DNA of 64,000 nt, from the NCBI RefSeq assembly GCF_964355755.1, contig NC_092678.1:6402422-6466421 (forward strand), written 5' to 3'. The notes under the pieces were generated by a model, which ran no database searches, had not been told where the DNA came from, and was given only the letters and a program-made list of their open reading frames with translations. Of the stretch, positions 14,312 to 40,503 are shown piece by piece. The position numbers and the translations under genes are program-made. This DNA comes from Antedon mediterranea. Lineage: Eukaryota; Animalia; Echinodermata. How positions within the stretch are numbered: the first letter of the stretch is position 1; every line of letters begins with the position of its first letter.

Positions 14312-14381
14312 ATGATGAGTTTTCAGCAAGCAATTGTCGCTTTGATCCTGTCCACCACACTTGCGGGAATAACACATGGTC
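14312..14381 (+). CDS. Nrg: L1/neuroglian exon: start codon and signal peptide MMSFQQAIVALILSTTLAGITHG
   Basis: Acceptor ttacag before 14284, hydrophobic leader, donor C|gtaagt (phase 1). Confidence 0.85.
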
Positions 14382-17300: not shown

Positions 17301-20300
17301 GTGTATGTCCCAAAGTAGAGATACAGTAACTACTGTACTATTATTATTAATTAATATCTTGTAAAATCAGTTTGTCTCTGGAACATGAGTCATAAAATGT
17401 GATACATTAATTGTAGCCTCTAAAATGTTATCTAATAATATATAGAAATATTTCAAAAATATAATATGTATTGTTTATGCAACAGGCACACATCTAAAAT
17501 TTAAATGCAGTTAAAAAAGAAAAACAATATTTGTGGAAAGATGTAATATAAATTCAATTTATTTTAGATTTTACATGAATAAAAAAAAAATGGTTATCAT
17601 CAACACTTGACGTCTCTAGAGAGATAATACATGAACTCAATCATCAATGACATACATAGATATATTAAATTGAAGAAAACAAAATGTTGATATAATCAAC
17701 TGGCTGTTTTTATGTATTGTTGGTCTTTAAATGTCAGAGCTATGTCGGCCCAAAGGATTTCATCTAAATTGGTTTTGATGGTAGATTATTTATTTATTTT
17801 ATGTTATTTTACAGTCGCCCCAATCAGTCAAGCACGACTGGAAATTTTACATTTTTAAAGTTCAATTGTAAGAAATCTATTTGCCTTCTTTTTCCCGGAC
17901 GTTGAGAAATATTACTGAACAGGGTTATGCGGGATTTTGTCTGTCCATATTATTGTCTGTTGTGTAATGTTTCTGTTATTTTCTTTAATTCAATTTACTT
18001 AAATGATATTTCCTCTGGTATGCTTGTGGTACACTACAAAATAGGTGATAAGTTCTAATTAAAAATTGTATGCCCTTATGCTACAGACTCTTAAATGATG
18101 ATAATTTGTCGTGTCCCTAATTAAATGTTAACTTTTGTTACAGAAGTCGAGAACCTAAGGTGCTGTGACCTACTGTCTTTAACCCAGCTTATAGGTTTTG
18201 ATGTTTCTGAACCCCAAATTGTCACTTGCCAAGGTTCATGCTTAGGCCCCCTTTGAACTACTGTATACTTGGTCAAACAATAATTTTATTCTTGAGCCGA
18301 TTAAATGGCAGTCAATGATATACAGTAGTACAATACAACACATTAAAGATTTAAAAGCATAGAAAAAAATAGACTCAATTTGAAGGGGAATTTAGTAGTT
18401 ATAAAGTAACCATAGTTGTAGATTATGTAACTTTAATGTCTCGTTCCTACAGTATTGTCCCAATAATGCGTGTTTAATGTGTTTTTTTTAGTCCTAATCT
18501 GATACTAAAATCTAGAATTTGATTGATGTCTGAAACGATTTTGGATGCGAATGGTTTTAATTGCATTTTGAATGCACTAGTATAGTTAGTACAATATAGC
18601 CTGAATTTCAACTTGTATGCTATACTTAATAGTTATTAACAATATTTTTATAACAATTATTGAATGCATTTGATTTTAATGAAGGAATGAATAAATTCAC
18701 AAAATCATTATTTTTATTTATCTTTACTAAAAATATATTAAGTTTGATGATTGATTGGACTTATTGATTACTTTATTATTAGCATTTAATGTTTATTATT
18801 GTATTTAAAATAAAAAACTACTACAGTGGTTTTATAATATAGTTGAGTTGAGTGGGCAGGGGCACTACAAGGCATGGTAACCCCAAAGCTTTTAGATGCC
18901 TTCTCAATATTTCTGGTAGAATGTGAAAATGGGGTAAGATGCGTTGATGCGATTCTACTCTGAAAACATAGCCACGTGTTCAAGGCTCTTCTCTGCCATA
19001 AGATCGGCAAGAGTTTGAGGCTCACTCGCTCCATGGTCTTCTCGGACAAGGACTAACAACTGGAGGTTTAGTGTACACATGTGGCTTGTGTGCACCTTAA
19101 ACAATCATCTTTTGCAAAATTAGAGGTTACCACGGTGTACTGATCAGTGCTGTTTAATAGCATGTATGACATGTTGAATATTGTGTAAATTGTCCACAAT
19201 GTGTGCAATTCAGTCCAAAGACACTGGTTATTCCCACACATTTATTTTTTAAAATATGGATTAATTATGCATTCTGTAGATTAAAAACTACCATACTTTA
19301 GCAAATGTACTATAAACTATGCGACATAATTTAAATACAGTATTGGTTGATACAATAGTGACATACTCCGGTTCCAGGCAGCTATCCCATTGATTCTCTC
19401 AAAAAACTGCCAAGAAAAGTAATAGCTTGCTGCACAATCATAAATGTGTGTTCTTCCAAATTTTTTTTATCTATAAAGCATTAGCATATCATTGATGCCT
19501 TTTCAAGCTAATTTGCATATTTACAGGTGTAGTACAATTTACATTCTAATTGTTACCTTTCTTGTTAACATCCAGGTGATCCACCAGACATCACAGGCTT
19601 AAAAATAGCAAAGGAAGGCTTTGATTTTGACCTTGACGATTCAAGGTCATACGTGTTAGATAGCCGCAACCAACAAGGTGTAATATCAAAGATCTGGTGT
19701 GTGGTAAAAGGACAAGTAAGGTAGGAAACGTGACGGAATATCAAATTTCAAAGAAGGACGGAGCGGGGAGCTATGTGACTATCTGACACAAAAGCACAGC
19801 TCTGATAATACTCCTATTCCATTTCCGAAAAACTTGTGCAGGCAAAATGACTGCAACAGTCAGAATACTGTATTCCCCGCAACACGATACCTACAAAACA
19901 ACACGATAAATTTGGGAACAAAACTTTGATAATTCATTGCTAATGCAATCCTGGTATAATTCCACCCCTATATTTGGCCACATTTTACCCCATCTCCTGA
20001 AACTCATAATGCACAGAAAAAGGCATCTTTATTATTGATTCTCTGTTTACTTGAAACCACCGCCCCCCCCCCCCATTTTTTTTTTTGCACACCCCTATTC
20101 AGGGGACACCCATAATAAGACGACACTTTCCAATAAAATGGATAATGGGTAATATATGTTAAATATGTATAAAACACTATGGCCAACTACTATTCAAGGT
20201 ACACCCTATGGAAACGCAGTCCTGAAGGTGTCTCCTTAATAGGAGTTCTATTGTTTTTAATGGAACAATAACTGAACTATTTTTGTCTACACAGTGAAGT

Positions 20301-23300
20301 AAGTTGGTACTTCAATGAGGATACTGAGTATATACGAGATGGTCGAAAGTACAAAACTGGGAAAGATGATGGTATTGGTTACTATTTACAAATATTGGTT
20401 GTAGATGAGAGTGTGACAGGAAACTATCATTGTGAGGCAGAGAACAGACTGGGCAGAGCAATGTCTCAGTATGTCAACGTAACACAAGCATGTAAGATTA
20501 TAATAATATCAAAGAGTTTATAAACTTGATTGGCTAGAGGGTGGACTCCAATGTCATCACAATTAAAAAACAAAGAGTTTTAACACGGGCAACCCCTATT
20601 CAAAAAGACACCTTTATTATTAAGGGGACACTTCCTTTGAAACAAACATATGAGGAAGTATGTTTAACACTATGGCTAAACTCCTATTCAAGACACACAT
20701 ATTAAGGGGACACTTCCCTATAAAATGACCATGAGAAAGTATATGTTTTAACACTATGGCCAACTCTTTGCAGGGGACACACAGTTATAATGGGGACGTC
20801 TCCTTAATAGATGTTTTACAGTACCTAACTAAATACCTGAGTGAAACTATTATCTTACAGATATTGGCACATACGGTAAGGTTGCTAATCGAAAGGAAGA
20901 TAAACAGTTAAATGAATATTTAATGTTGAACTGCCAACCTCTTCAGTCCAACCCAGATTTAATCATATCATGGAAAGTTGGTGAAGAAACTGTACAGTAC
21001 AATGACCGGCGTCAGATGGATCAGACCGGCAATCTGTATATCTCTAACCTTGTGAACGAAGATGCTGGAACGTATAAGTGCTTTGTAAAGAATCCGGTTC
21101 TTGGACAGACGTTCTATAGCGAGGAAATTTCTATTGGATTTGCCGGTAAGAGCATTATAGCATCTATTCTGCTGAATGTTGATGCCAGAGAGTATATAAA
21201 ATAACACCCTCTATCTAAATATATGGTTTGAGCACGCTAATATAAAGTCTTCCAATATCTAATTTTTGTTGTATAATGTTCCCTGTTTACACTATCAAAC
21301 TAGTTTGACCAAAAAAGTGTGATGTGCCTATTAAATATGGTAGTGATATGCCCAAATATGGTAGTGATATGACATCATCATGTCCATATATGGATTTAAG
21401 ATAATGTAACCTATTTATAACTTCTAACATTGGTTTCTACATCAATATTTACAGAAAATCCAACAGGAGTAGCCGAGCGTAGACCAGTTATTGTCTACCA
21501 ACCACAGGCAACAACAATTGGAATGAGGAAAACAAAGCTTAAAATTCAGTGCATTGCGCAAGGATAGTAAGTTTATATTTATAGGCCATTGTCAATATGT
21601 TTTGGGTTGCGTTCATTTTTTTGGGGGTGGGGAATAGGGGAGGAAATACATCTTTAAAAGTAACCAATCTTTCATCATAATAATTTTATTTGTATTTCGT
21701 CTTATAGTCCAACACCCACAATTAAATGGGAAAAGCTCGGAGGCACCATAAAGCCAAGTGAAACCAATAAACCTATTCTAGAGATATCTGATGTGGATTT
21801 TAGTGACGCTGGGACGTATCGATGCACTGCAGAAAACAGTCAGGGCAGTGCACGTGCCCAGACAGAAGTCGTTGTGCAAGGTAGGTATGCTTTTATAGGC
21901 TTAAACAAAGCCTTCTACCACCGTACGTCCATAGCGGGTCTACACTGAATTTCCTCAACTGGGGAGAAATAATAATAAATTACATTCTAACACACCAGCT
22001 TTTATTCTTGCAATTTAATTTGTTAATTATGCATTACATGTAATTTAGAATTAGCCCTACCTAATGCTGATAATTAAAATGCTCTTATGCACGTTCAGCT
22101 TTTTATAAACATTTTTGCCAGGCGACGTTGTTTGCCGATAGCGTTTGAAAATCAGCATATTGTCTACTTTTTTTTTCCACGTCCAGCCAAGTTGAATGGC
22201 CTAGGTTTCTGGCCTAGTTAGTCAATGATGAATAAATTGAATAAAAGTAAGTGTGTTATAAAACAAATAATATATGTTTTGTATTTGTTGAATGGAGAGA
22301 ATATTTCATTCAATGAAAAATCGACTGCTCTATTTTCAACTCAGCTCCACTTCTTCCTCTCTTTTTTAACTCATGAAATACTCTAGTGGCTATGCTTGTT
22401 ATAAAATTATTTTTTTTTTATAGCGGCACCATATGTAGGTGTTCCAATGGCTGACACTGAATCATACCCACGTGAGACCGCAGTGTTTACTTGTGACCCG
22501 CAGGGCGTACCAGAACCGACCTTTCAATGGATGGTTGATGGAGTCAAACGTAAGTACAGATTTTTTATTTTTAGGCTCATGGATGAACGCATACTAAAAC
22601 ATGTTTTAATTTGAAGTTTGCGGCAGACTAAGAACTGTTGAGTTTATGACGTTTTCATTATGTGCTTTGGTCATCCTCTAGTTTAACAAAAACATTTTTC
22701 TAAACTTTCTATTATTTAAAAGTCGAAGATAGCCAGGTCTCGGGTCCATTCTATTGTCGCCACAGATTGATATCTTCATCAGTACTTCTATGAATGGATG
22801 ATTCGGTGGGAACACGAACGCTAGTTGATCATACCCAGTACCGTTTTGATCGTACGATTAATCGGGAAACCACATCACGACTGATAATACAGGAAGTCCA
22901 GGAAACTAAGGAATTAAAGTTGAGATTGTATGGGACAAAGTGTGAAAGTGAAAATAATATCAATTTTTTGCCATGCAAACCTTCAAACAATATATAATTT
23001 AATTCAGAATGTATCTCTTCAGTTAAAGACTGGTCTCCCAGAGGGCCCAGTTATGATCAGTGGCTGTGTGTGTACAAGTACACCGGGGGTAACCTCCTAC
23101 TCACCTCGAAAGATGTACTAGGTTCTTTAAAGTGCACATGAGCTATGTGTACACTAGACCTATGGTATATAGTCCTTATCCGAGAAGACTCATTCTACCA
23201 CCAGAACCATGGAGCGAGTGAGCCTCAAACTCTTGCCGATGTTATGGCTACGTATTACGGTCCCACTGTCTTAAACGGTTCAGCCACTCACGCAATAGTT

Positions 23301-26300
23301 AATAATTACTTTCTACTTTTGATTAAAACATTATTTTATTATTTATTTCATATGGATGTTGCAGCAAGAGACTTTCATTCTGTCAATGGGAAAACATTAT
23401 CAGTGATAAACATTACTAAAGATGATTCAGCCGTATTTCAGTGCATGATAATGAATGATTACGGAATATACATCGACCAAGCTACGTTCAAGGTTGTCTG
23501 TGAGTATCCATAATCCAGTTTTTTACTAGCGAATTTATTTGTGAAAAAGCGCTATTGTAGTGCATGCATATTGCGACAAATTCTAGTTTGTATTTATTCA
23601 ATCAATATCAACAGGAATGCAGAACAGTTTTGATTTTACGAGCATCCTGTAAATTATCCGCTATTATAAATGCCAATCCTTTTTATAAGCACCCTCTATG
23701 GTTTGGTATATTTTTCAAAATAGTATAGCACCCTTTATTGTTTGGACATGCTTTCATAAAACTGCTCAATATTTTTCCAAGTTGGGAAGTCTGTGTTACT
23801 GTACAACAATTCAAAGTGTATATACATGTTCTCTATACACAAAAGTTAAATATAAACAAAAATAGCTTTTGCTAATGGATGGTTGTCTTTTTGTTTCAAA
23901 GTTGTTCGAGCTGAAATTGTAGAAGGTCCAGCAAGTGTGCGTATGGTAGAGGGAAAGGATGCCAACTTCACCTGCCAGTTCATTGGTAAACCACCTCCAA
24001 CGGTGACATGGAAGTACAAAAACACTAAAGTAAGCTAATTGCACAAATTCTTTACAGTACAACTTACCCCCCCCCCTCCCCTACCCCCATTGGGACATCA
24101 CTATTTAAAACATATTTGATACAAGGTTTGTGTTATATTGATAGCCAGTAAAATTGAATTTGGGCCAATAGAGCAGTTAAAAACAACCTTAAGGATGACC
24201 CCTATATGTCAAGGCTTAAGTGAGATATTCTAATATTTCAGGGAGTATCAATATTCAATCTAACAGCAGACCAGGTAAGGTTCATTCATGTGACATTAAT
24301 GTGTGACATGTGCTGCACTTGCCATGTGTTACATACACGCAGACATACCCAAACACATCATGTGCATGAACTATGACATTGATAATCATGTCTACTATAT
24401 GCTAGACAATTGTCTATCAAATCTGTTTATGCATGGAGAAAATAAATGCAGTATAAATTACTACAGGGAGAAAGGGTAACTAGCTTGGAAAGTACAATTA
24501 AAACATGATTGTTATTTTGCAACAAGACGCATGCATGCTATGCTATACAGTAGAGCCTCTTTTGGGACACTGCTATTCAGGGGATGTTATCATGTGAAAT
24601 GAACAAGAGACAATATATGCTTTGACACTACAGCCAACCCCTATTGAGGGGACACCCTTATTAAGGAAACACTTTGGTGGGTCCTGAAGGTGTCCCTTAA
24701 TAGGGGTTCTATTGTGTTAGTAAGTCATCTACTTGTAAGGTATAAAGGGTGAGCTTACACAAAAGCACATTATAAAAATCGATAAGTTATGTTACTTGTT
24801 AGTCTCCCGATTGCATGAAAATGTTGAGGTGATGCAAGGATGAGAAGAACGGTACATGGGCGCCATTTGTGTAGGTCATGAATATTCTTATACTACTACT
24901 TAAAATTAGTGTGTCCCAATTGGGACACCTCTATTCATAAGACACCTCTATTATGGAGATACTTTCTTGTGAAATAAGGGAAAAATATGTTTTGATACTA
25001 GCATAGTAGTATTTTCATGAATATTCTTGGGCTAAATAACCTTGGAAGGGAGGAGTTGGCATGTTTAAAAAATGTGTCTTATATTTTGCGTAACTGGTAT
25101 AGGTTGTATTAAAAATAAAAAATAAAAAATTGCTTAAATCACATATTTTATAGTACAATTGAAACCCATGTTAAGGAGACACCTTTGGAACCCAACAAAG
25201 TGTTGTAGGATTGTTGGCCATAGTGTGAAAGCATACATTTTTGCCTTTTAGATAATAGGGATGTCCCCTGAATAGGCGTGTCTTAAGGGAGGGCTAAGCA
25301 GTAACTGTAGTAGGATGTTTCTTTACCCATGTTGGTCACGATAGCTCCCTATGATCGCTTCTACCCCTAATGATCGCCTCTACCCCTCTATGATCGCCTC
25401 AACCCCCTATGATCGCCTCAACCCCTCTATGATCGCCTCAACCCCCCTTTGATTGCCTCAACCCCCCTTTGATCGCCTCTACTCCCCTATGATCGCCTCT
25501 ACTCCCCTATGATCGCCTCTACACCTCTATCATCCCCTCTACTCCTCTATCATCCCCTCTACTCCCCTATGATCGCCCCTACACCTCTAGCATCCCCTCT
25601 ACTCCTCTATCATCCCCTATGATTGCCTCAACCCCCTATGATCACCTCAACCCCTCTATGATCGCCTCAACCCCCCTATGATCGCCTCAACCCCCCTTTG
25701 ATCGCCTCTACTCCCCTATGATCGCCTCTACTCCCCTATGATCGCCTCTACACCTCTATCATCCCCTCTACTCCTCTATCATCCCCTCTACTCCCCTATG
25801 ATTGCCTATGATCGCCTCTACACCTCTATCATCCCCTCTACTCCTCTATCATCCCCTCTACTCCCCTATGATCGCCCCTACACCTCTATCATCCCCTCTA
25901 CTCCTCTATCATCCCCTATGATCGCCTCAACCCCCCTATGATTGCCTTAACCCCCCTATTCCCCTATGATCACCGATTACCCTTGGCTAAATTTGCCATC
26001 ATGGAGATATTTAACACAGTAGCATATGAATATCTGTGTTATCCCATAGAGGTTTGTCAACCTAATAAGCAATTAACCAAGTCTACATCATACTAGGTAT
26101 TCGTCCATATGGCTTCTGCTTACAGTATTTTCCATTGGGACATTGTTTCATGATTGGCTAATAACAGTGTTTTATTTATATATAATACCCCAACATGATA
26201 TATACACTGTCATATACTGAAGGAATGTATTCATTTCAGTCTAACAATATACATAAACTAAAATGTATTTATTAATAATTTCCTGCCCTTTCATGATATT

Positions 26301-29300
26301 GAGAGTAATTAAAATATTTAAAAATAATGTTCATGTTTGAATGGAACTTATTTAATAATACAGTAGTAAATAATCGTATTGTAAATATAAAGGAATCCCT
26401 TTAGTTTAAAAACTGTTTATTAAAATGGTTTCAAAGTGGTTACATTTTCTCAAAGTAAATCCCTGGATTTTGGTCCAAAAGTACGCCTATAGACTTAACT
26501 GAATGTAAGGGAATATGTTACACTATACTAGCAAAGGTACCCTCTCCAGACTGGTTAACTCACTCTGGGACGGTTTTAAAATCTAGTTTTAAAAACAGTA
26601 CAATTCTCTTCATTTTTATACCTACCCACTCCCTTGGGTGGTTCAATTGTATTTTTTAAAACTTTCCCAATTCAATTTTGATAATTTTGACACCCCATAC
26701 CACCAACCTCACCCCGTGGGTGGACATGGTTCAATTGTAATTTTCAAAACTTTCCCAATTCAATTTTGATAATTTTGACACCCCATACCACAAACCTCAC
26801 CCCGTGGGTGGACATGGTTCAATTGTAATTTTTAAAACTTTCCCAATTCAATTTTGATAATTTTGACACCCCATACCACCAACCTCACCCCATGGGTGGA
26901 CATGGTTCAATTGTAATTTTTAAAACTTTCCCAATTCAATTTTGATAATTTTGAGACCCCATACCACCAACCTCACCCCGTGGGTGGACATGGTTCAATT
27001 ATAATTTTTAAAACTTTCCCAATTCAATTTTGATAATTTTGACACCCCATACCACCAACCTCACCCAGTGGGTGGACATGGTTCAATTGTATTTTTTAAA
27101 ACTTTCCCAATTCAATTTTGATAATTTTGAGACCCCATACCACCAACCTCACCCCGTGGGTGGACATGGTTCAATTGTATTTTTTAAAACTTTCCCAATT
27201 CAATTTTGATAATTTTGACACCCCATACCACCAACCTCACCCCGTGGGTGGACATGGTTCAATTGTATTTTTTAAAACTTTCCCAATTCAATTTTGATAA
27301 TTTTGACACCCCATACCACCAACCTCACCCAGTGGGTGGACATGGTTCAATTGTAATTTTAACTACAATAAGTACAATTCCAGTCATTTTGTACCCTTTT
27401 ATTTCTTTGTAAATTCAGATTGTACCTGATACTAAATATTCTATTATAACTGGTGATGAAAACAGTATGCTGACTGTTCGTACGGTGTCAATAAAGGACG
27501 ACGCCGGAGAATACTCATGTTACGTTGAAAACGATTTCGGAAACGATGATGTAATGGGTTCCCTGACTGTTCTCCGTAAGTTTCTTTCACTTTGTTAATC
27601 AATGTAAAGCTCTGTCTACACTATCCAACTAATTTGATATAGTGATATGCCCATATATAGTGGTGATATGACATCATCATGTCCATATATGGGCATATAA
27701 AATTTTTTGATATAAAGTTTGATAGTGTAGACAGAGCTTTAGACAATAAATGTAATGCACTTGGCTTTAAATCATTTTTTTTTCAACAGAGAACACCGTT
27801 ATTATACAACCCCCATCACCTAGTAATGTAGAAGAAGGTAATTCTGTAACGTTGAACTGTCGAGCTAACGCATACAGTGATGCACCATTAGTGTACACGT
27901 GGGAAGACGACGAAGGTGTAGAGGTAGCTCAGGGTAATAGTTTCATCCTGACAAATGCGGCAATAGCCAACACCGGAGCGTATACTTGCATTGCATCTAC
28001 TGATCTGGATGAGGATAAAGCAACAGCACGCATCACCGTTCTAGGTTTGTGTTTAAATTAAGATAAATTAGGACCTCTATTAAGGGGACACATTTGGGAC
28101 TTAGGTAAAGTATACCCTTAATATGGATGTCCCCTGATTAGGAGTTGGTCATAGTGATAAACATCTACTCCTTGTTTGTTTCATGGAAAAGTCTCACTTA
28201 ATGGGAGTTTCCCCTTAATAAGAGTGTCCCTTTAATAGAGGTGCCTCCTAATATAGGTGTCGCTTTAAAAGAGTTGTCTTTTTAATAGAGGTTCGAGTAT
28301 TTGAGGTTCAAGTATTCATTTCAATAATAGTAGGAAGTCCTCTAAATAGGGGTGTTCCAAAGTTAATTCATATTTATTTGTAATTGTCAACAGCAAGACC
28401 TGGTCCCTTGACAAGCGTAGATGCCGTTTTGGACACAAGAAACGAAAATAAGGCGAACCTTGAATGGGAGGCCGGTCCTTACCACAACTCACCAATCACT
28501 GGATTCATCATTCAAGCTAGGACAGCATTCGATAGCGAGTGGACGGAGGTCAAGAGACCAGAGAGTAACTACCTAACTGCAAAGGTGGATGTCAATCCTG
28601 GAAATACATACAGCTTTCGCATGGCTGCTGTAAACGACATTGGCACGTCAGATTTTGTCGATGCTAGCAGTACGGTTGATACTCCGTCTGGTCCACCACG
28701 AACAAACCCTCAGAACGTTGCTGGGAGTGGACAGTCAACAGATACCATGACAATAACATGGGATGTAAGTGTACACCAACCTACTAGTATACTCATTTAC
28801 AACAAGGGGTCACGTTTTGAACCCAACAAGTGTCCATTTAATAAGATATATATTAAAATTCCTCTTGTTCTTTTAACGGAAATTTCCTTTTACTGGCCGT
28901 GTACCCTAAATAGTGGTGTCCCAAGGGAGAGATTCTGAAACTCGTATGATAAATTATAAAATAAGTTATCCATCCTGTAATTTGCTGTTGGATGCGTTTG
29001 AAATATAAAAATATAAATTTCTAAAAAATAATAATCTAATAGCATAATTTTCATGTAAATTTATTAATAGTACTTTGTAGTATAATATTATGTTCCATTC
29101 TTCATTAGCAAATGGACCAATCGCAGCATGGTGCTAGTGGATTCAAGTACATTGTGATGTGGCGTCGAACAGGACAAGATGATTGGATGAATGTCACCAT
29201 CGACGACTATACAACAACAGAATACAGTGTAGATGGCGCTACAACTTACGAGTCATTTGACATCAAGGTCATAGCAGTGAATGATCAAGGGAAAGGACCG

Positions 29301-32300
29301 GAAGATGAGCAACCAGTGATTGGGCATTCAGGAGAAGCTAGTAAGTGTTGTCGTGCCTAGAAGGAGGAGGGAAGAGATCCTCTTTTTAGCATCTACTCTA
29401 TGGATAACATACATGCCAGCACTCGTGGGAGACTCCCGTATTTTAAACTTGTCTGCCGGCCTAACATCGTGCTCCCGGTTTTTCACATTTCCTCCCGGAC
29501 TACAAAGATAACTGAATTTTTATATATATGTTATATATTATACAGATATTGACTGCTTAGAGGTTAAATATAAGATTTGACATCCCCGAGGGAATGATAT
29601 TAATTTTTATATATATGTTATATATATATTTTTATTTATATTTATTATTATATATTACTTTTATACTTATTTAGCACATCCCAAATTTGACAAAGAAGCA
29701 GTTGGTGTGCTCTCAAAAGCATTGTTTATCAAACCACATAATTGATTATAATGACACTTAACACACGTAATTACACAGATCCTTTCAGGCAGAATTTTAT
29801 TTGAATAAATACAATGCGGTTTACATGTTTATATTTATAGACCTTATTTTCAAATTATAATTTAGTTGCTGAGGTTTAGTGTGATGGTTGTTTTAACGTT
29901 CTTTTTTTTCCAGAACCCGGAGCAGCCCCCACTGATGTAACTGTTGACCCCAACCCAACCAGTATTCGTGTTAATTGGACTGCTATTCCAAAGGATCAAG
30001 AAAATGGAAAACTTTTGAGAACTAAGGTAAACATAAATTTGGATTTACAGATGTGATTTACTTATATACCACCATCAATGTGGTAATAGATTACTAATCA
30101 CATGCGTGGGTATACAACAGATTCATTTCAATTGAAAAAACACCACAGAACACAATTTTGTTTATAAAACACAGCAAACTTCATGAATGGAATTCACCCC
30201 TTTTTTTTCTTCTCTAGATCTTTGTGAAACAAGGCTTAATACAAGTAGCATCAACTACCTGTCCCAATGAGCCAACATCATGTGTGGTTGGAGACCTAAA
30301 GCCAAATACAGATTATGAAGTGACTGTCGGAGTGGAGAATAGCAAGGGCCTAAGTCCTTCTAGTACATCTGTTTCCACAACTACAACTGAAGGAGGTAGA
30401 CAACATGGATTTATTTGAGTAGAGCCACAACTGAGGAGACATCTTGGGACCCAAAAAGCGTCTCCTCAGTAGAAGTTGGCTGTAGTGTAACACATATTTC
30501 CCCTCTTTTATATCACAGGATAGTGTTCCCTTAATAGGAGTGTCTCCTGATTTAGGGGCATCCCAAAGTAGACCCACTAAACCACAGAAGCTCTTTATAA
30601 ACCCTTACAATATGTATTGTGTATATTTAATATGTGTTATAATGCATACATTTGTGATTTGTTAATTAATACATAATAATATTTCTCATTTGCATATATT
30701 AGCACCTGGTCAAGTTCAAAATTTTATGGCGACTGTGTTATCGGATAGAATGAAACTTACCTGGGGAGATCCACTAAAACCAAATGGTGTGATTCAAGGT
30801 TTCAACATCGTATATAACAAAAGTAAGAATGTTTTATTTTTTATTTGGTAACATTTGTCAATTTTATTGCCATAATATATAGTTATAAAATTATTTTATA
30901 ATTATATATCTTATATAGAATACAATGATAACAACCACCAAACATTGTTTATTCATTTGTCCATAAAGATGAAAACTGAGATGTTACCCCAAGCCCTATT
31001 TTGAGAAGACTTGTTCTACAATGGTTTGATGGCTATGGTTTGCACTGCCCCTGCCTTAACAGCTTGACAACATTACTTGTGTAGCAAATAAAAAAACACA
31101 GTCTGATACCACGTCTATTATTTTATACTCGCATTTAAGCACATCCGTTTTTGTTGTTTGTCTATTCTATATGTTATCCTACAACGTTCTAATTGTTATG
31201 ATTAAAATCAACAACCTGTAAATTTTATTCAAATTATCTTAATTATCTTAATTATCTTAATTATCCGCTCCAAGTTACCTGAGAGATATTCTTACTGTGT
31301 GGAATGTTTCTCGCAGTACTCGTTCAAGCACCAGCAATTATAACCTGACAATCCCACGAACTAAATGAAAGACATTTGCTGACCGTTCGCTCGCCGTAGC
31401 AGGACCCAAAATTTGGAACAGATTACCAATTCACATTGAACACTTAGACGACTATAATCAGTTTAAAAAACATTTAAAAGCACTATATTTCAAACAATGT
31501 TACGATACTAATTGATGTGAAGCGCCGCTGATTATAATTAAATGTTGTATAAATGTGCGCTATACAAGTAATAATAATAATAATAATAATAACACACCAT
31601 TCAAATGCAAGTATTTTCAACCAGTAACTTTCGTAAACACTACATCATCCAGTCAACTTTCTTTCTCTCTATCTTTTTATGGTTTTTTTTTTTTTTTTTT
31701 CGGTTATATTATAGTCAATGCACAGGTGGCTGGAGAAGATATTAAAGTTGTTGTATCACCTGATACCTACAAATTCGTCGCAAAGGACCTAGAACCAGGT
31801 GAAACATATGCAATCTCTATAAAGGCCTTTACAAACGCAGCTCCGGGTGAGGTGACGAAACGCGAGCTTACGATGAGGCCAAAGGGAAGTAAGTATGATT
31901 GTAATTATCGTTTATTATTATTGCATCTTACTTGAGGTTCAAAATGGGGAAATGAGTTAAAATTGTCACTGCCATTTGTCACTTGTTTACTACCAAAGTC
32001 TGTTTCAATGTTATTTTCAAATCGTTTATTAGATCATACCTATAACATAAGAAATCCACATAAATTGTATGTTCCATTTGTTAAACTTAGAAAAAGCCAG
32101 TTTTTTATTACTTATTTAGGACCAACGTATTGGAATAATCTAGATTCAACTGCCATCAATCATTTATATACTGTAAATTCATTTAGAAAGCATATAAAAA
32201 TCCTTTATTTATCTTGTTACCAAACCTACTAAATATGTTGCGCACTGTATAATTTATTTAATTGTATGCGTTGTATTTGTATATTTATACGGTACCGTTC

Positions 32301-35300
32301 TTATTTTTGTTTGAATTATTATTATTATTTTAGGGGTCAATGTGAGACAAGTTCTACTTCTAATTTTGATCCCTAAGATGGTCTTATATTAATTGTTTAT
32401 GATTGTTTATTGTAATATTGTTTGTTATATATTGTGACCATCTTAAATAAATGTATTATTGAATTGAATTGAATTGAATTGAAATCACAAATTTGATTGT
32501 GTTGTCTTGTTTGAATCTTAAAGCTTTGTCTATGCTTTCAAACTCTATGTGATAAAAAAATTTGATGTGCCCATATATGGACATGATGATGTGATATCAC
32601 TACGACATTTGGGCACATCACACTTTTTTTGACAAACTAAATTGATAGTGTAGACAAAACTCAAGTAAGATACTGTACAGGCATTACATCGTCCTTCAGA
32701 TGGAGTGTTTAGTTGGTCATATTCAGAAATATGTGCCTATGCTCAACTTGTTAGACTACACAGTTTTGTTAAGCAATAGTTCTGCAAACATCATAGGTTT
32801 GATTTCACACAGGCGGGGCCAAACGCAATGATTGGAAGGGCATTTTCTTACGTTGAGTAGATTGCGTTACGTTGCATTGCTAGTGGGAACCAAGTATTAA
32901 TAATTATGGTTATATTACATTGTACATTATAGGATAACTTTAAATTCAATACAACATTATCCTACGGTCAATTGGAGTACCTTTACACGTTATGATACAG
33001 TCGAATCCGCCTAAGTCGAAAAAAAAAAAATCGTGAAAGTCAAATTTTTATGAATTAAAGTCCAAATTGAGTCTCATTAGATTCGACTTAGGTGGAGTCA
33101 ACTGTACCTTATTTACATGTAGATAATAGTGAGCTTTCATTTTGTGACAGTAGACGAACAAAGAGATGTCCATGTACTTCTCCCTGAACTGCCCTTCATA
33201 TACACTTTACAAGTTCTCTCTATTTTTTTTGGTTTTGCTCAATTGCTTATATTTTTCCTAAATCTGTTGCCGTTTTTAGGGTTTTTTGATGAATTTCCTT
33301 ATATCCAAAGATTGATAGCATTATTTAAAAATCGAGTGTTTTGTTTCTTTTTGCTTCTTAGGACCAACTGTTATCACTGGCACAATAGATATCACTACAA
33401 CTGACAATGAGGCTACTGTAGTTTGGGAAGCCAATACAGAGGGTCCAGCAGCATCAACATTTCTAATAAGCTACAAAAGGGCAGATGGTGAGTGTAGTAC
33501 TGTAATAGGTTTTAATGTCAGAGTTCAATTTTTGTAAACTTGCTTGATACTATCAAGTGCGAAAAGTGGTTAAATTTACCTGGTTTATAGTCTAGTGCGA
33601 ACAGGGATTTAAACTATTTATTATTATCCCTCAGGGTGTAAATCACCTTTGAGGATTTAGAGGGCTAACCCCGGTACCATAAAAAATTATTGCGTTTTTT
33701 ATTTGTTTTTATCTGTTTTTTATTGTTCTTTTCATGTATGGTATCGAAATAAATAAAATCTGAATACATTTTCAAGAGAAGCTTCTCTAGATACATTAAA
33801 GATGTAGTGTCTCCTGAAAACCATTTTGCAGTTTTAATAAAGTTATTCACCTATGTAAAAAAAAACACCAAAAATCATTATTTCACTTATAAAAAGACAA
33901 AAGAAATGTTTAATTTTAAATGAAAACCGTTGTCTAACAGACAATTTATGTATTTTTTGCTATACTTTTTTTCGGGTAAATAATTTTTATTTTTCGATCA
34001 AGTTTTTTTAGGGGAAACGTAAATATCTTTTTTTTTTTTATTTCAAGATGATGATGGTGATTATTCTATACCAATTGAAGTATCAGCCTTTCAAAATCCA
34101 TTAAGTGTTGAATTGGTTGGCTTGGATCCTGGCACCAAATATAAAGGAATAATAAAATCTGTCAATGATGAGGGTTACATAATTAAAGAAATAGAAATGG
34201 TCACTGGTGGAGTTGGTAAGTATGGAGAGCCAATTGTGCATTATGGAAAGGCAATTCGAAAGTGATTAGCACTCATGGCAATCCCCAGGGTATTGCACCG
34301 TTGTCATAAATGAATGTTTTTAACTGTTTGATGTTCAGAGATTTAATGTTTTTAACTCTTTGATGTTCAGAGATTTAATGTTTTTAACTGTTTGATGTTC
34401 AGAGATTTTAATGTTTTTAACTGTTTTTTTTTTTATTATTGTACAATTTGTATATGTAATTTACTCTCAATTCAATGTTATATATTACAACGAGTAGAAT
34501 GAATACAACCAGAAATAAAATATGTAAAATATTTTTGATAAATAATTTGTGTCGGAAGAATTCAGTTGGATTAAAAAAGTTCACTCTGACATAAAAATAA
34601 ATGCATATATTTTGCACTTTCCACCATCTAATACTATACTGTAAAAATTATTAACCAATAGATGCACTGATTATGTTTATTTTTTATTAATTTTTTTTTT
34701 ATTCCGGTAGTATATAAAAACATTACAAAAAGCAGAACAAGTCTGAAATTATTGTAGTACATATAATAAAAAGTTACATTACAGAAAAAAAATACAAAAA
34801 AATTTACAATATGCATGAAAAAATAAATATACTGTACATTAATCATTAAAATTTATCCAATAGAGCAAAAATGCAATGTCATAAAAAAAATAGATCATTT
34901 CTTCATTCATTTTATCAGTACAAAGTATCATTACTTAGATTCACTAGTATTTTAAATATATTTATCAACAATATTGCAATGTCATAAAAAAAATAGATCA
35001 TTTTTCATTCATTTTATCAGTACAAAGTATAATTTAGGTTCACTAGTATTTGAAATATATTTATATATTTATCAAGGTTTTAATTTATTTTAAGCAATAA
35101 CACAGTACTGTATAAAACTGACTCCAAATTAACATTTTAACATTATTTTATCTATATACAATATAATAATCATCAACAAAATGATAATAAACATGTAGAT
35201 GTTTTCTTTTTTTAGCCAAGAGTACGGACACTGGGTCTACAATTCAACCGTGGTTAATAGCTATGATTTGTATTGTGTTGCTCCTTGTGTTAGTATTACT

Positions 35301-38300
35301 ACTACTATGCTTCATTAGGAGTCAAAAGGGAGGCAAATACAATGGTAAGTAGAAGTATGTCGGCTTATGAAGTGCCTATTATATGGGAAAATAACTATTA
35401 TTGGAGACTTGACCATATACATTAAACAGATCTAAACTTGCAATGTATTATTATAATTAACTGTTTTATTTTTGGGCACCTTACATTTCCAATTGAAATG
35501 GTATGTACACACTAATAATGCACTCTATTTTACACCTCTCTTTTTTATGCACCCTGAAAAAGAACTCATCCCTGGGATCATCCCTAAGGAATAGGGAATA
35601 GGTATCGACTCCATAGGAATAGGTATCGACTCCATAGGAATAGTTATCGACTCCATAGGAATAGTTATCGACTCCATCAGAATAGGTATCGACTCAATCA
35701 GAATAGGTATCGACTCAATCAGAATAGGTATCGACTCCATCAGAATAGGTATCGACTCCATCAGAATAGGTATCGACTCCATGAGAATAGGTATCGACTC
35801 CATGAGAATAGGTATCGACTCCATGAGAATAGGTATCAACTCCATGAGAATAGGTATCGACTCCATGAGAATAGGTATCGACTCAATGGAAATAGGTATC
35901 GACTCAATGGAAATAGGTATCGACTCAATGGGAATAGGTATCGACTCCATGGAATAGGTATCGACTCAATGGAAATAGGTATCGACTCCATGGGAATAGG
36001 TATCGACTCAATGGGAATAGGTATCGACTCAATGGGAATAGGTATCGACTCAATGGAAATAGGTATCGACTCAATGGGAATAGGTATCGACTCAATGGGA
36101 ATAGGTATCGACTCAATGGGAATAGGTATCGACTCCATGGAATAGGTATCGACTCAATGGAAATAGGTATCGACTCAATGGGAATAGGTATCGACTCAAT
36201 GGGAATAGGTATCGACTCCATGAAATAGGTATCGACTCCATGGAATAGGTATCGACTCCATGGGAATAGGTATCGACTCAATTGGAATAGGTATCGACTC
36301 AATAGGAATAGGTATCGACTCAATAAGAATAGGTGTTAACTCCATGGGAATAGGTGTTGACTCCATGGGAATAGGTATTGACTCCATGGGAATAGGTATT
36401 GACTCCATGGGAATAGGTATTGACTCCATGGGAATAGGTATTGACTCCATGGGAATAGGTATTGACTCCATGGGAATAGGTATTGACTCAATGGGAATAG
36501 GTATCAACTCAATGGGAATAGGTGTTGACTCCATGAGAATAGGTGTTGACTCCATAGGAATAGGTATTGATTCCATGAGAATAGGTGTTGACTCAATGGG
36601 AATAGGTATCGACTCAATGGGAATAGGTATCGACTCCATGGGAATAGGTATCGACTACATGGGAATAGGTATCGACTCAATGGGAATAGGTATCGACTCA
36701 ATGGGAATAGGTATCGACTCAATGGGAATAGGTATCGACTTCATGGGAATAGGTATCGACTCCTAGGGAATAGGTATCGACTCCTAGGGAATAGGTATCG
36801 ACTTCTAGGGAATAGGTATCCACTCCATGGGAAGGTATCCACTCCAAGGAAGGGAATAGGTATTGACTCCAAGGGGAAATTAGAAATAGGTGTGTCGACT
36901 TGTGGATAGATACCTTGAGTTAAGTTACTTACTTTAATATGGTAATGGTTAGCCTTGATCAATGTTGTCAAAGCATGGACTATAAAATGCATACTCATTA
37001 TCAAAATTAAATATTAACATGCTATCATATTCTGTTAAAAATATATTTATCCATTGCTTCGCACCTTAGTTTACAATATGCTTGCAAATTAAATTTTTCT
37101 TTTTGCTCGTTTTATTTTTTCCCCAATTTTGGTGATTAATTTCAGTATCTGATAAGGAAGATGCATTAAGACAATTGGACTTAGAAGCAACGCCTTTAAA
37201 AGACCAGAATGGATTCACTGAGTATTCTCCAACAGAGTAAGTTCAAGGAAGCACCATAACGAATAATTAAGCATAACAAATGTTGGGTTTTTTTTCATTT
37301 CATTTATTTGGCATCATCGTAGGATAAAATAATATATCAATATAAAATAAATTTTACAAAAGGTAAAGATACACACTGTTCAGTTGTAATTTAAGTTAAG
37401 AAAGAAAAACATAATACAGTATATACACGTAACTCCTTTGTGCTCAATTTTAAAACCTTTTGGGCATAAATGTTGGGCACAGTGCATTATAAGCATAATA
37501 CTGGGAATAGTACTGCGAAGGATTGTGTTTGTCTTCATTAAACAATATAAAAACAGTTTCCAAATTGTTAGAAAAAAAATAATACAAAATAAAATATATA
37601 TTAATAAATAAAATATATACAAAAAATATAAAAAGTATTTAAAAAATAAATAAAAAAGATGTAAATACTAAATAATTAATTCCTGAGCTGGTGCAATTTT
37701 GATCCTACCCTGAAGTAGATATAGACATTTAAATTTAGGTTTTTTTTAATCCAATTTGAAAAAAATACAATAAGTACAGGTATAGTTACATTTATGTAAT
37801 AATGAATTGATAGGTAATAATAGTCTTTTAATTCTCTTAACTTAGATCAGAATTTTATGTGTAAGGTATGAATTTTAAAATATCAAAACATTTTTTTTAT
37901 TAACATTTTTATTTTGGTTCTATGTTGTGTATTTGCTGTTTTTGTTTTTAATGTTTTTTTTTTTGTTTATGCCTGACATCACAATATTTTCTGCATCCAA
38001 AAAAAAAAAAATTGTTAAGCTCTGTCTACAATATCAAACTTTATGTGAGAAAAAAATGTTGTGTGCCCATATATGGACATGATGATGTCATAAAAAATGA
38101 AATGAAAAAATGAAAAATATCACTACCATATTTGGCCACATCACATTTTTTTTTAGTGAAACTAGTTTGATAGTGTAGACAGAGCTTAAGGGTTACATTT
38201 TCTGCAGTACAGTCAACTATCCCAAAATCTGTCCACCATTGCACTTGCCCCAAAATTCAGGTTTCACAATGCATTTAACATGAAAAGAATTTCAAAGTTT

Positions 38301-39112
38301 CAAGACATCGTGACACATTTGAGGTCGGGGAGTTCGGTTTTAGGAAGTTCGACTGTATTGTGTAATTAGAATCACTTATGACTGCTATGTTTTATGTTCA
38401 TCTGGGTCACAAAACGAGGTGTTTGAGGGAGGTCTGCATGAAAAAAGCTGTCATTACCAAACTGATTTTTAATAATGTATTGACATAAACTGTATGAGAA
38501 TTACAGTTGTGTTTTGATGTGATGCAACAAGAAACTATCTAAATATTATTATAAAGATTATATGAAAGAATAATTATTATTAAAGTTTTGGGAGTGATTT
38601 CTTATTACTATTAAAAAATTCATATAGCAAATAATGAAAAAATATGCAAATAATTTGTTGGCCATGTCCAGTAAATAAACCTCGTAACAACTTGTCTGGA
38701 TTTTATGCATACTTGTTTTCTTAAACTTTGGAAAATTGTACCATTTTTTTTTTTTGTGGCATAATTTTGATGCTGATTTGGATATGTTTAACAGCCTTAA
38801 ATTATAACCATTTAAATATTCGGTGATAGTTTATTTTTAACAGGTTGAAGTGGAGAAACATATTGTCAAACTCTATCTAAATCATCAATAATAACGTTTT
38901 TTTTTTTCAGTGATTCATGCGAAGAAAAGGATCCTTTAAAAAACCTAGAGAGTGCGGGAAATGACGAGAGTGAAGACGATAGCCTTGCAGACTACGCTGA
39001 AGGTGGCGGAGATCAATTCAACGAAGATGGATCCTTTATTAACGAATATGGTGACAATCGGCGATCTAACGATAAGGAATCGTCCAACGCAGCATACAAC
39101 ACATTTGTGTAG
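14312..39112 (+). CDS. Nrg: L1CAM/neuroglian (NrCAM/neurofascin-like) cell adhesion molecule, multi-exon, about 1245 aa: signal peptide, 6 Ig, 5 FN3, TM, cytoplasmic tail
   Basis: Manually spliced with GT-AG introns in consistent phase: 14312-14381, [15848-15865], 19576-19720, 20295-20491, 20861-21145, 21455-21566, 21708-21880, 22424-22549, 23365-23499, 23902-24029, [24242-24274], 27419-27575, 27790-28044, 28394-28764, 29109-29340, 29914-30026, 30218-30395, 30703-30822, 31715-31888, 33362-33487, 34048-34215, 35216-35344, 37146-37236, 38911-39112 (3738 nt). L1-family tail: KGGKYNV...FTEY...DDSLADY...QFNEDGSFINEY. Confidence 0.95.
15848..15865 (+). CDS. Nrg: L1/neuroglian 18-nt N-terminal microexon (LTLERP)
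   Basis: Long polypyrimidine tract ending tctatag, donor CAG|gtaaaa, symmetric phase 1-1, no stop. Confidence 0.7.
18965..19150 (+). mobile_element. tRNA-derived SINE with Deu-like core (partial)
   Basis: Shares ATCGGCAAGAGTTTGAGGCTCACTCGCTCCATGG...TTCTCGGA.AAGGAC with the copy at 23020-23293. Confidence 0.7.
19576..19720 (+). CDS. Nrg: L1/neuroglian exon, Ig1 first half (DPPDIT...IWCVVKGQV)
   Basis: tccag acceptor, PP motif and first Ig Cys; phase-2 donor AG|gtagga required by the next exon. Confidence 0.85.
20295..20491 (+). CDS. Nrg: L1/neuroglian exon, Ig1 second half (VSWYFN...GNYHCEAENRLGRAMS)
   Basis: Ig core Trp and GxYxC motif, AG/GT sites. Confidence 0.93.
20861..21145 (+). CDS. 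Nrg: L1/neuroglian exon, Ig2
   Basis: LNCQP...ISW...DQTGNLYISN...DAGTYKC; overlaps ORF 20923-21204. Confidence 0.95.
21455..21566 (+). CDS. Nrg: L1/neuroglian exon, Ig3 first half
   Basis: RRPVIVY...LKIQCIAQG, phase-2 donor. Confidence 0.92.
21708..21880 (+). CDS. Nrg: L1/neuroglian exon, Ig3 second half
   Basis: YPTPTIKW...DAGTYRCTAENSQG. Confidence 0.95.
22424..22549 (+). CDS. Nrg: L1/neuroglian exon, Ig4 first half
   Basis: AAPY...FTCDPQGVPEPTFQWMVDG. Confidence 0.93.
23020..23293 (-). mobile_element. tRNA-derived SINE with Deu-like core (DeuSINE)
   Basis: Minus strand: A-box-like TGGCTGAACCGTT, B-box-like GTTTGAGGC, then GTCTTCTCGGATAAGGAC...TTAAAGAACC...AGTAGG...CCCCGGTGT resembling the Deu domain. 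Confidence 0.7.
23365..23499 (+). CDS. Nrg: L1/neuroglian exon, Ig4 second half
   Basis: TLSVINITKDDSAVFQCMIMNDYG. Confidence 0.93.
23902..24029 (+). CDS. Nrg: L1/neuroglian exon, Ig5 first half
   Basis: EGKDANFTCQFIGKPPPTVTW; the acceptor could instead be at 23911 (same frame). Confidence 0.88.
24242..24274 (+). CDS. Nrg: Candidate 33-nt in-frame cassette exon inside Ig5 (GVSIFNLTADQ)
   Basis: ctaat branch-like site, tttcag acceptor, CAG|gtaagg donor, phase 0-0, downstream TGCATG cluster. Confidence 0.6.
24548..24714. mobile_element. pogo/Tigger-like MITE, family B (CAGTAGAACC termini, GGGGACAC repeats)
   Basis: TACAGTAGAGCCTC...GGGGTTCTATTG; degenerate copies near 6312-6460, 11964-12088, 20085-20250, 20590-20823, 25150-25308, 28070-28360, 30420-30570, 51055-51200, 51664-51870, 54640-54850. 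Confidence 0.65.
25345..25975. repeat. C-rich ~20-bp minisatellite (ATGATCGCCTCTACTCCCCT variants)
   Basis: About 30 units, with a higher-order block repeated at ~229-bp offset. Confidence 0.9.
26634..27361. repeat. 88-bp tandem repeat x about 8, near-identical
   Basis: TTTCCCAATT recurs at 26663, 26751, 26839, 26927, 27015, 27103, 27191, 27279. Confidence 0.95.
27419..27575 (+). CDS. Nrg: L1/neuroglian exon, Ig5 second half
   Basis: SMLTVRTVSIKDDAGEYSCYVENDFG. Confidence 0.93.
27608..27738. mobile_element. MITE family A copy
   Basis: Same TIRs, TWA flanks. Confidence 0.8.
27790..28044 (+). CDS. Nrg: L1/neuroglian exon, Ig6
   Basis: VTLNCRA...YTW...TGAYTCIASTDLD. Confidence 0.94.
28394..28764 (+). 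CDS. Nrg: L1/neuroglian exon, FN3-1 and start of FN3-2
   Basis: LEWEAG...NSPITGF...YSFRMAAVNDIG...TMTITWD. Confidence 0.95.
29109..29340 (+). CDS. Nrg: L1/neuroglian exon, FN3-2
   Basis: GFKYIVMWRR...IKVIAVNDQGKGP...GHSGE. Confidence 0.95.
29914..30026 (+). CDS. Nrg: L1/neuroglian exon, FN3-3 first half
   Basis: PGAAPTDV...SIRVNW...NGKL. Confidence 0.92.
30218..30395 (+). CDS. Nrg: L1/neuroglian exon, FN3-3 second half
   Basis: LKPNTDYEVTVGVENSKG...TEG. Confidence 0.93.
30703..30822 (+). CDS. Nrg: L1/neuroglian exon, FN3-4 first half
   Basis: APGQV...LTWGDPLKPNGVIQGF. Confidence 0.92.
31315..31592 (+). mobile_element. L2/CR1-group LINE 3' fragment
   Basis: Degenerate ORF2 end (TRSS...LTIPRTK*KTFADRSLAVAGPKIWNRLP...FKKHLK) plus GCGCTATACAAG(TAA)n tail. 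Confidence 0.8.
31715..31888 (+). CDS. Nrg: L1/neuroglian exon, FN3-4 second half
   Basis: DLEPGETYAISIKAFTNAAPG. Confidence 0.92.
31963..32482 (+). mobile_element. CR1/Crack-group LINE 3' fragment
   Basis: HTYNIRN...LYVP...YLGPTYWNNL...SFRKHIK, then 3' UTR, AATAAA and (TTGAA)n tail. Confidence 0.8.
32998..33104. mobile_element. Small pogo/Tigger-like MITE
   Basis: TA-CAGTCGAATCCGCCTAAGTCGAA...TTCGACTTAGGTGGAGTCAACTG-TA; a related element at 38210-38355. Confidence 0.7.
33362..33487 (+). CDS. Nrg: L1/neuroglian exon, FN3-5 first half
   Basis: ATVVWE...FLISYKR; AG/GT sites, phase 1-1. Confidence 0.88.
34048..34215 (+). CDS. Nrg: L1/neuroglian exon, FN3-5 second half
   Basis: LVGLDPGTKYKGII. 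Confidence 0.88.
34313..34423. repeat. ~32-bp tandem repeat x about 3.5
   Basis: ATGTTTTTAACTGTTTGATGTTCAGAGATTTA repeated. Confidence 0.85.
34870..35075. repeat. ~100-bp tandem duplication
   Basis: TGCAATGTCATAAAAAAAATAGATCATTT...CACTAGTATTT occurs twice. Confidence 0.8.
35216..35344 (+). CDS. Nrg: L1/neuroglian exon, transmembrane helix and KGGKY motif
   Basis: WLIAMICIVLLLVLVLLLLCFIRSQKGGKYN. Confidence 0.95.
35595..36870. repeat. 21-bp minisatellite x about 60 (GGAATAGGTATCGACTC(C/A)ATG)
   Basis: Direct inspection; source of the MESIPIP / MGIGIDS / SRYLFP ORFs. Confidence 0.97.
37146..37236 (+). CDS. Nrg: L1/neuroglian exon, membrane-proximal cytoplasmic segment
   Basis: VSDKED...PLKDQNGFTEYSPT, phase-2 donor. 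Confidence 0.93.
37846..37865 (+). CDS. Nrg: Candidate alternative microexon giving a short C-terminus ...PTESEFYV-stop
   Basis: ttctcttaacttag acceptor, AAG|gtatga donor; reads GA|A TCA GAA TTT TAT GTG TAA from the upstream phase-2 donor. Confidence 0.55.
38018..38186. mobile_element. MITE family A copy
   Basis: Same TIRs, TWA flanks. Confidence 0.8.
38911..39112 (+). CDS. Nrg: L1/neuroglian terminal exon: ankyrin-binding region and PDZ ligand
   Basis: DDSLADYAEGGGDQFNEDGSFINEYG...YNTFV-TAG. Confidence 0.95.
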
Positions 39113-40497: not shown

Positions 40498-40503
40498 AAT
40501 AAA
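40498..40503 (+). terminator. Candidate polyadenylation signal of the L1/neuroglian 3' UTR
   Basis: AATAAA about 1.4 kb after the stop codon, followed by T-rich sequence; other AATAAA sites exist, so the choice is tentative. Confidence 0.35.

Follow-up and report, generated by a model that had tools for sequence, protein, structure and literature searches.

Results

We analyzed a 64,000-nt stretch of the genome of the crinoid Antedon mediterranea (NC_092678.1, positions 6,402,422 to 6,466,421, forward strand; hereafter the window). It carries an L1/NrCAM-like cell adhesion gene whose last intron contains a candidate 20-nt microexon that would end the tail of the receptor early. Mapping protein P0001 (XP_071960044.1) onto the window yielded 22 coding exons separated by GT-AG introns (Table 1). 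The last exon is 100% identical to the NCBI entry XP_071960044.1, annotated as 'neuronal cell adhesion molecule-like' from A. mediterranea, and a protein from Anneissia japonica shows 90% identity to it. Pfam finds six Ig_3 and five fn3 stretches in P0001 together with Bravo_FIGEY (PF13882, E=3e-17), and by this set of six Ig domains, five FN3 domains, a transmembrane segment and a Bravo_FIGEY tail the host gene is a member of the L1 family.

Table 1. Positions of the features discussed, in window coordinates except in the last row, which names metagenome contig loci. A slash marks an exon-intron boundary.
Feature	Position	Strand	Basis or comment
L1/NrCAM-like gene	14312..39112	+	6 Ig, 5 FN3, transmembrane segment, Bravo_FIGEY tail
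Transmembrane exon, ends GGKYN	35216..35344	+	protein mapping; 3' end joined to the 37145 side in a contig of run X1
Penultimate constitutive exon, juxtamembrane tail, ends FTEYSPT, phase 2	37146..37236	+	donor GA/GTAAGT
Last intron, phase 2	37237..38910	+	excised whole in one RNA-like contig
A-richest 100 nt of the window	37573..37672	+	composition scan; 69% A, five AATAAA/ATTAAA
Acceptor region of the candidate, pyrimidine-leaning, TAG ends 37845	37823..37845	+	AG-free zone 22 nt; no TGC
Candidate 20-nt stop microexon (ESEFYV-stop)	37846..37865	+	sequence, in silico splicing
Donor of the candidate, AAG/GTATGA	37866..37871	+	7/9 matches to the gene's own donor consensus
U/GU-rich tract, 64% T	37891..37990	+	T-richest 100 nt of the window's + strand; possible TIA-1/ELAV-type element
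Miniature inverted-repeat transposable element (MITE)-like element, high-copy	38015..38189		26-nt terminal inverted repeats, TTAA at both ends; not part of the switch
Last coding exon	38911..39112	+	FNEDGSFINEY 39017-39049; class I PDZ-type end NTFV 39098-39109; stop
24-nt microexon in invertebrate relatives	L002, L005, L008, L009, L013, L020 (about 4696-4719), L024-L027, L032 and 11 more

The sequence FNEDGSFINEY in the last exon aligns to the neurofascin part of an ankyrin-G complex (PDB 7xce, E=1.2e-6). The contact residues named for the ankyrin site (F, E, D, S, F, I and Y; PMC9396398) are retained in the crinoid, with the G and Q of FNEDGSFIGQY replaced by N and E, and the FINEY variant is predicted to bind ankyrin. 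This variant is found in both crinoids, FIEEY in a sea cucumber and a coral, and FIGQY in other echinoderms.

Within the last intron an AG ending at 37845 and a GT starting at 37866 enclose 20 nt. When they are joined in silico to the penultimate exon, the reading is E-S-E-F-Y-V-TAA, and a single nucleotide separates the stop (37862-37864) from the junction. The 20 nt also hold a second acceptor (CAG, ending at 37850) and a second donor (GTAAG, with its GT at 37861), and pairing either acceptor with either donor yields four readings, ESEFYV-stop (20 nt), ESEFYV in frame (15 nt, 37846-37860), EILCVS in frame (15 nt, 37851-37865) and EILC-stop (10 nt). Read-through of the donor of the penultimate exon adds one residue (FTEYSPTE) before a stop. 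The segment lies outside the MITE-like element, and the alleles of X4 near it are too few to gauge constraint.

Using scoring matrices built from the gene's own 21 introns, the candidate acceptor reaches 4.4, more than 8 of the 21 real acceptors, and the donor 7.3, more than 6 of the 21 real donors; the second acceptor scores 4.1, and CAG is the main acceptor of the gene (11/21). The segment thus has usable splice sites and falls within the 3-30 nt between AG and GT of a cassette microexon. The pair ranks first of 118 in its own intron and fourth of 1,423 across all introns, and it alone among these 1,423 reaches both of its scores. Control DNA of 120,640 nt contains 11 pairs that equal it at both sites (0.14 per intron) and 67 that do so in summed score (0.87 per intron). 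Under 16 scoring settings that left out the host intron it ranked first in 15, with 0.09-0.14 (both sites) and 0.61-0.80 (sum) equal pairs expected per intron. The splice signals by themselves are ordinary; the peptide end is not.

A class II PDZ ligand is defined by hydrophobic-X-hydrophobic at a free C-terminus (PMC6747541), which F-Y-V-stop satisfies provided that the 20-nt form is made. The ends EFYA of syndecans and EYYV of neurexins are class II ligands of CASK, with E common at position -3 (PMC2133028). EFYV shares with them the E at -3, aromatic residues at -2 and -1 and a small hydrophobic residue at 0, but the likeness is confined to these four terminal residues, and EFYV is a predicted ligand. 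When 9,252 control pairs were spliced into the frame of the candidate, 2,470 had a stop inside the exon and 452 ended in any PDZ class; by criteria set post hoc, after the sequence was known, 146 had a class II end with a stop, 63 of them with E or D at -3, and two had the strict E-aromatic-aromatic-aliphatic-stop pattern. The initial annotation had assigned the gene to the L1 family, placed the residues of the ankyrin site in its last exon, given the coordinates and splice combinations of the segment and likened EFYV to EFYA and EYYV. All of this holds against the NCBI match, the Pfam domains, the 7xce alignment with its contact residues and the published ligand definitions, and the 10-nt EILC-stop version is an addition to its list.

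No other 100 nt on the + strand of the window is as rich in T as the stretch that begins 25 nt downstream of the candidate donor. Of the 42 pairs on either strand that score well, only the candidate and 15848-15865 have a flank with 60% T or more, and the next value is 50%; the cut-off, like the flank criterion itself, was chosen post hoc. The latter pair encloses a second microexon candidate (+ strand, 18 nt, in frame) in the intron after the signal peptide (14382-19575). It has a 79-nt AG-free zone and a 60% T upstream tract that is the third T-richest window, and it is absent from the NCBI model; small alternative exons occur in this intron in starfish, sea cucumber, acorn worm and fish proteins. 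The A-richest 100 nt lies about 180-270 nt upstream of the acceptor of the 20-nt segment, with its AATAAA/ATTAAA motifs at 37588-37654. A hairpin between the A-rich and U-rich tracts was considered and rejected (fold z=0.12; the arm alignment was matched by 9% of 1,000 shuffles).

The same intron hosts tiny exons in other animals. Fish L1 proteins include forms with and without RSLE, as well as one ankyrin-less model (P0027, Megalops L1.2 isoform X3). A profile scan of metagenome contigs identified animal DNA with 279 relatives, and the results given here cover 80 of them; a first scan had returned 264 stretches, none of which was confirmed, and no crinoid locus was recognized in either scan. 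One group comprises 34 loci that encode FIGQY and STFV. Their exon ending in FGEYTRT is followed by a phase-2 intron, and 22 of the 34, including all 11 with a complete intron, contain in it a near-invariant, in-frame 24-nt microexon (the other 12 contain just 174-1,891 nt of the intron). It encodes P-R/H/C-M-E-L-K-Y, ends at an AG/GTA donor and is preceded by several TGC and followed by a U-rich flank (T 0.42-0.53 against an intron mean of 0.32-0.40). These loci are close kin and are therefore counted as one lineage. To judge from its sequence and position, the 24-nt microexon looks like an invertebrate counterpart of RSLE. A second L1-type group (L034, L042, L057 and kin), with FIGLY and a YNTFV end, has no conserved island in this intron and lies near the microexon-bearing group on the tail tree. 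Apparent EYMA/EYTA ends of one locus group resemble donor read-through and were set aside.

Seven of eight spliced-type records in the metagenome set are in frame across the junction; the exception is L070. This contig has an 83-nt insert (647-729) at the junction, with a remainder of 2 modulo 3 like that of 20, and a stop at 705-707; its tail ends in YSEL, a class I PDZ pattern that is also YxxL, and the FIGQY exon is out of frame. The last 21 nt of the insert resemble the 24-nt microexon and have no preceding AG, which suggests a separate 62-nt exon with its stop 1 nt before a junction, probably the same geometry as that proposed for the crinoid. On a tail tree of 69 columns, L070 and the microexon-bearing loci fall, with moderate support, in an 85/84 group without named echinoderms.

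Elsewhere in the window, the intron between the transmembrane and juxtamembrane exons contains a long tandem array (35588-36906) with a unit of about 21 nt, as judged from its translation. An Ig/FN3 gene on the - strand (about 46900-56800) lies tail to tail with the L1 gene, and the best single-domain matches of one of its exons are contactins. L1 and contactin genes are neighbors in vertebrates (NFASC-CNTN2, CHL1-CNTN6), and the adjacency in the window may be an old linkage.

Discussion

We favor a reading in which 37846-37865 is a minor, regulated cassette microexon that ends the tail at ESEFYV and swaps predicted ankyrin and class I PDZ coupling for class II coupling. We put its probability at roughly 0.45; this and our wording for the other readings are judgements, not computed values. 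In its favor we count the top rank of the splice pair in its intron, the rarity of its peptide end among the control pairs, the T-rich flank, the 24-nt microexon of the relatives, the L070 record and the likeness of the acceptor regions. The moderate acceptor and the AAG/GTATGA donor would depend on the binding of a TIA-1- or ELAV/Hu-type factor to the U-rich tract 25-125 nt downstream, so that inclusion would be limited to a minority of cells. Downstream U-rich enhancers of the TIA-1 type are known, and junction-dependent decay spares stops close to the last junction. With its stop 1 nt before that junction, the mRNA would thus escape such decay. The short receptor would keep the ectodomain, the transmembrane segment and the juxtamembrane part and lose the predicted ankyrin site and the NTFV end. 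It would not be fixed to ankyrin-spectrin, and class II PDZ proteins, predicted to be of the CASK or syntenin type, would cluster or traffic it instead. The tandem acceptors and donors may also give in-frame 15-nt by-products. The factor may promote or block inclusion: in flies, ELAV excludes U-flanked cassette exons in neurons (PMC8055025, PMC8904962), by which analogy the short form would be non-neural, and the skipping seen in bulk suggests a rare cell type for inclusion.

Several observations weigh against this reading. In run X1, presumed to be RNA from its spliced behavior and represented by the assembled contigs of one run, a 3,084-nt contig (depth 74.7) joins 37236 directly to 38911, and skipping of the candidate is dominant in this bulk RNA-like run. 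Since contigs drop minor forms, X1 shows skipping as the dominant form there and nothing more, and its lack of cover on the candidate is for the same reason not counted as evidence; an apparent depth of 12 in the bin 37804-37925 proved to be low-complexity noise that vanished on a narrower stretch. In NCBI, Antedon and Anneissia have a single listed isoform apiece. We compared 19 named ambulacrarian proteins from 7 species (Antedon 1, Anneissia 1, Diadema 4 from two species, Apostichopus 6, Ptychodera 2, Acanthaster 4 and Amphiura 1 fragment); no short tail occurs in this set, and no insertion in a tail exceeds one residue. The sole tail difference is one serine at the candidate junction in Apostichopus. 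Alternative pieces after the signal peptide are annotated in Acanthaster, Apostichopus and Ptychodera, which indicates that annotation in these animals does detect small exons, and the absence of a short tail from the 19 proteins counts against an echinoderm-wide switch. None of 31 candidates for a short-tail form among shorter proteins scored.

The splice context also has features that speak against inclusion. From 0.09 to 0.16 pairs equal at both sites, and 0.6-0.9 equal in summed score, are expected per intron-length, and of 300 block shuffles 48 reach both scores and 167 the summed score. The AG-free zone is shorter than 19 of the 21 real ones (range 17-112 nt). No TGC occurs between 37695 and 37933, and hence none before the acceptor, where the relatives' microexon has several; neural microexons of the SRRM4/eMIC type have a UGC just upstream of the acceptor and a long AG-free pyrimidine tract, and the candidate does not fit that type. 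The GTATG of the candidate donor occurs at none of the gene's 21 donors and GTAAG at 14, and the TAA stop is itself embedded in a GTAAG. In favor of the candidate, the 30-nt stretches preceding its two acceptors look like the acceptor region of the relatives' microexon (ranks 6 and 16 of 2,682, better than every real acceptor passing the filter, the best of which ranks 23), but by a score set of 15 training rows of which one (L029) is a false match, and the resemblance weakens over 45-60 nt (ranks 94 and 255 of 2,385 at 45 nt). No conserved island was found in this intron in two other locus groups. Finally, L070 is a single contig in which a one-base loss near the stop would make the insert in frame, and its 62-nt stop-bearing part has no credible match in the other 79 loci.

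Much of this would follow if the segment were an accident of an AT-rich intron, an AG and a GT 20 nt apart with a PDZ-like reading, beside tracts produced by low-complexity drift next to the MITE-like element. The skipping in X1, the single annotated isoform in two crinoids, the expectation of 0.6-0.9 pairs per intron for the summed score, the 452 control pairs with some PDZ-class end, the short AG-free zone, the missing TGC and the equally extreme A-rich tract nearby all agree with chance, as does the selection of this finding out of very many windows. What chance explains poorly is that a strict class II end, good splice sites and the flank richest in T come together in the very intron that hosts microexons in fish and invertebrate loci, and we consider it a serious if somewhat unlikely explanation. 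An in-frame 15-nt microexon resembling RSLE, either 37846-37860 (ESEFYV), which keeps the ankyrin site and NTFV, or 37851-37865 (EILCVS), appears to us unlikely. Fish RSLE, the 12-nt microexons of the vertebrate L1 family (PMC7821500) and the 24-nt invertebrate microexon all preserve the frame. The two acceptors score alike, with CAG fitting the relatives' acceptor region slightly better. Furthermore, since the TAA lies within GTAAG, the donor that this gene uses most, a frame-preserving exon of 15 nt would by itself yield a stop 1 nt before the junction, and the stop would then be just donor consensus, or out of frame. However, the donor at 37861 falls below that at 37866 in all five settings (1.0-3.8 against 6.2-7.3; 5 of 9 consensus matches against 7), the TAG is the first of the two acceptor AGs, and the class II end would be left as a coincidence shared with 146 of the 2,470 stop-bearing controls (2 strict).

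The stop could also belong to an internal last exon, reached by splicing to 37846 or by read-through at 37237 and followed by intronic polyadenylation, as in Nrg167, with the U-rich tract as a downstream element blocked by ELAV; the protein would have the same end or, with read-through, stop after FTEYSPTE. The fly neuroglian gene nrg is switched by ELAV acting on U-rich intron sequence and blocking the proximal end (PMC8055025, PMC8904962), and the crinoid intron has a U/GU-rich tract after the stop and five AATAAA/ATTAAA motifs before the segment. Nevertheless, we regard this as very unlikely: no canonical poly(A) signal follows the stop within 37860-38020, just TTTAAA at 37874, a good donor lies after the stop, and the X1 contig is unbranched across 37236 to 38911. 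Least probable of all, in our view, is an exon that is real yet unproductive, either poison or noisy, with transcripts broken down via a long 3' untranslated region to tune the L1 level. The frame-shifting length would suit it, as would the untranslated region behind the early stop: with X1 contigs over 38911-39524 and from 39573 to 40600 or further, its length is likely above about 1.7 kb, the 2.7 kb of genomic span less the intron. But only 1 nt separates the stop from the last junction, most of that untranslated region is also part of the long form, and the PDZ-like end would go unexplained.

For the regulated stop microexon that we favor, the nearest known systems offer partial parallels. 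Microexons of 12 nt have been described across the vertebrate L1 family (PMC7821500). Like RSLE, the crinoid segment would be a tiny exon that can be skipped, placed after the FxEY exon and before the exon with the ankyrin site. RSLE, however, is in frame, adds a YRSL sorting signal and keeps FIGQY, whereas the 20-nt form shifts the frame and stops; the two have no sequence likeness, the crinoid junction lies three codons further from the tyrosine, and no form of the segment makes YxxL at the FTEY tyrosine. Drosophila neuroglian likewise switches its tail in the intron before FIGQY and so alters the PDZ end, Nrg167 and Nrg180 each having their own FIGQY and Nrg180 a PDZ end (PMC3627646). It does so by a choice of poly(A) site between two full last exons, each with FIGQY, whereas a tblastn search with six tails finds one FIGQY-type exon in the crinoid window and no second. 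The crinoid exon would resemble the Nrg switch in effect, with loss of the ankyrin site. The 24-nt invertebrate microexon shares the phase-2 junction, the AG/GTA donor and the U-rich downstream flank but is in frame and TGC-rich upstream, and neither it nor the L070 insert showed sequence homology to the crinoid exon. L070 is closer in outcome, losing FIGQY and STFV and ending in a PDZ-type motif, which is, however, class I (S-E-L) and carried by about 62 nt, as against class II and 20 nt in the crinoid. P0027 has an L1 ectodomain and a short tail without FIGQY that diverges right after RSLE; it is a model, and its end, IDDR, is not a PDZ pattern, unlike EFYV. Dry et al. in 2001 reportedly described a truncating 3' exon in human and chick NrCAM. 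In Caenorhabditis elegans, LAD-2 combines an L1 ectodomain with a short tail lacking FIGQY, but is a separate gene. Worm LAD-1 has a PDZ end (PMC2196473).

The available parts of PMC2121080 and PMC13664354 contain nothing on tail isoforms, and a search of listings, abstracts and passages of open papers turned up no L1 gene, in echinoderms or elsewhere, in which a stop microexon swaps the PDZ class, and no account of the 24-nt invertebrate microexon or the L070 insert. The initial annotation knew of no such switch in L1 genes; this stands for the stop microexon, but tail switching at this place is known from Drosophila neuroglian, with FIGQY kept. That annotation also gave too little weight to the placement of the TAA within a GTAAG. 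Its view of the intron as a microexon site in other animals gains from fish RSLE, the 24-nt invertebrate microexon and the truncating, PDZ-ended L070. As for the switch that it proposed, the gene, the readings, the motif and the microexon intron are supported, but inclusion was not seen and the only RNA-like contig skips the segment.

A broader and more doubtful proposal is that the RSLE intron is a bilaterian-wide switch point at which some lineages (EFYV in the crinoid, YSEL in L070) independently use a stop-bearing tiny exon to make an ankyrin-free receptor with another PDZ address. With tandem splice sites 5 nt apart, a single 20-nt element could then be skipped, inserted in frame or made to truncate the protein. 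The 24-nt microexon and L070 matter even without the crinoid exon, because they extend L1 tail microexons beyond vertebrates. Ankyrin binding sets whether L1 proteins are anchored or mobile, a switch usually ascribed to phosphorylation of the FIGQY tyrosine. If the crinoid microexon is real, it would be a splicing-level version of the ankyrin switch, one that removes the site and adds a syndecan/neurexin-type PDZ end. Crinoids are the earliest-branching echinoderm class, and vertebrates have four L1 paralogues; such an exon would offer invertebrates with few L1 genes a route to the tail diversity that vertebrates spread over four.

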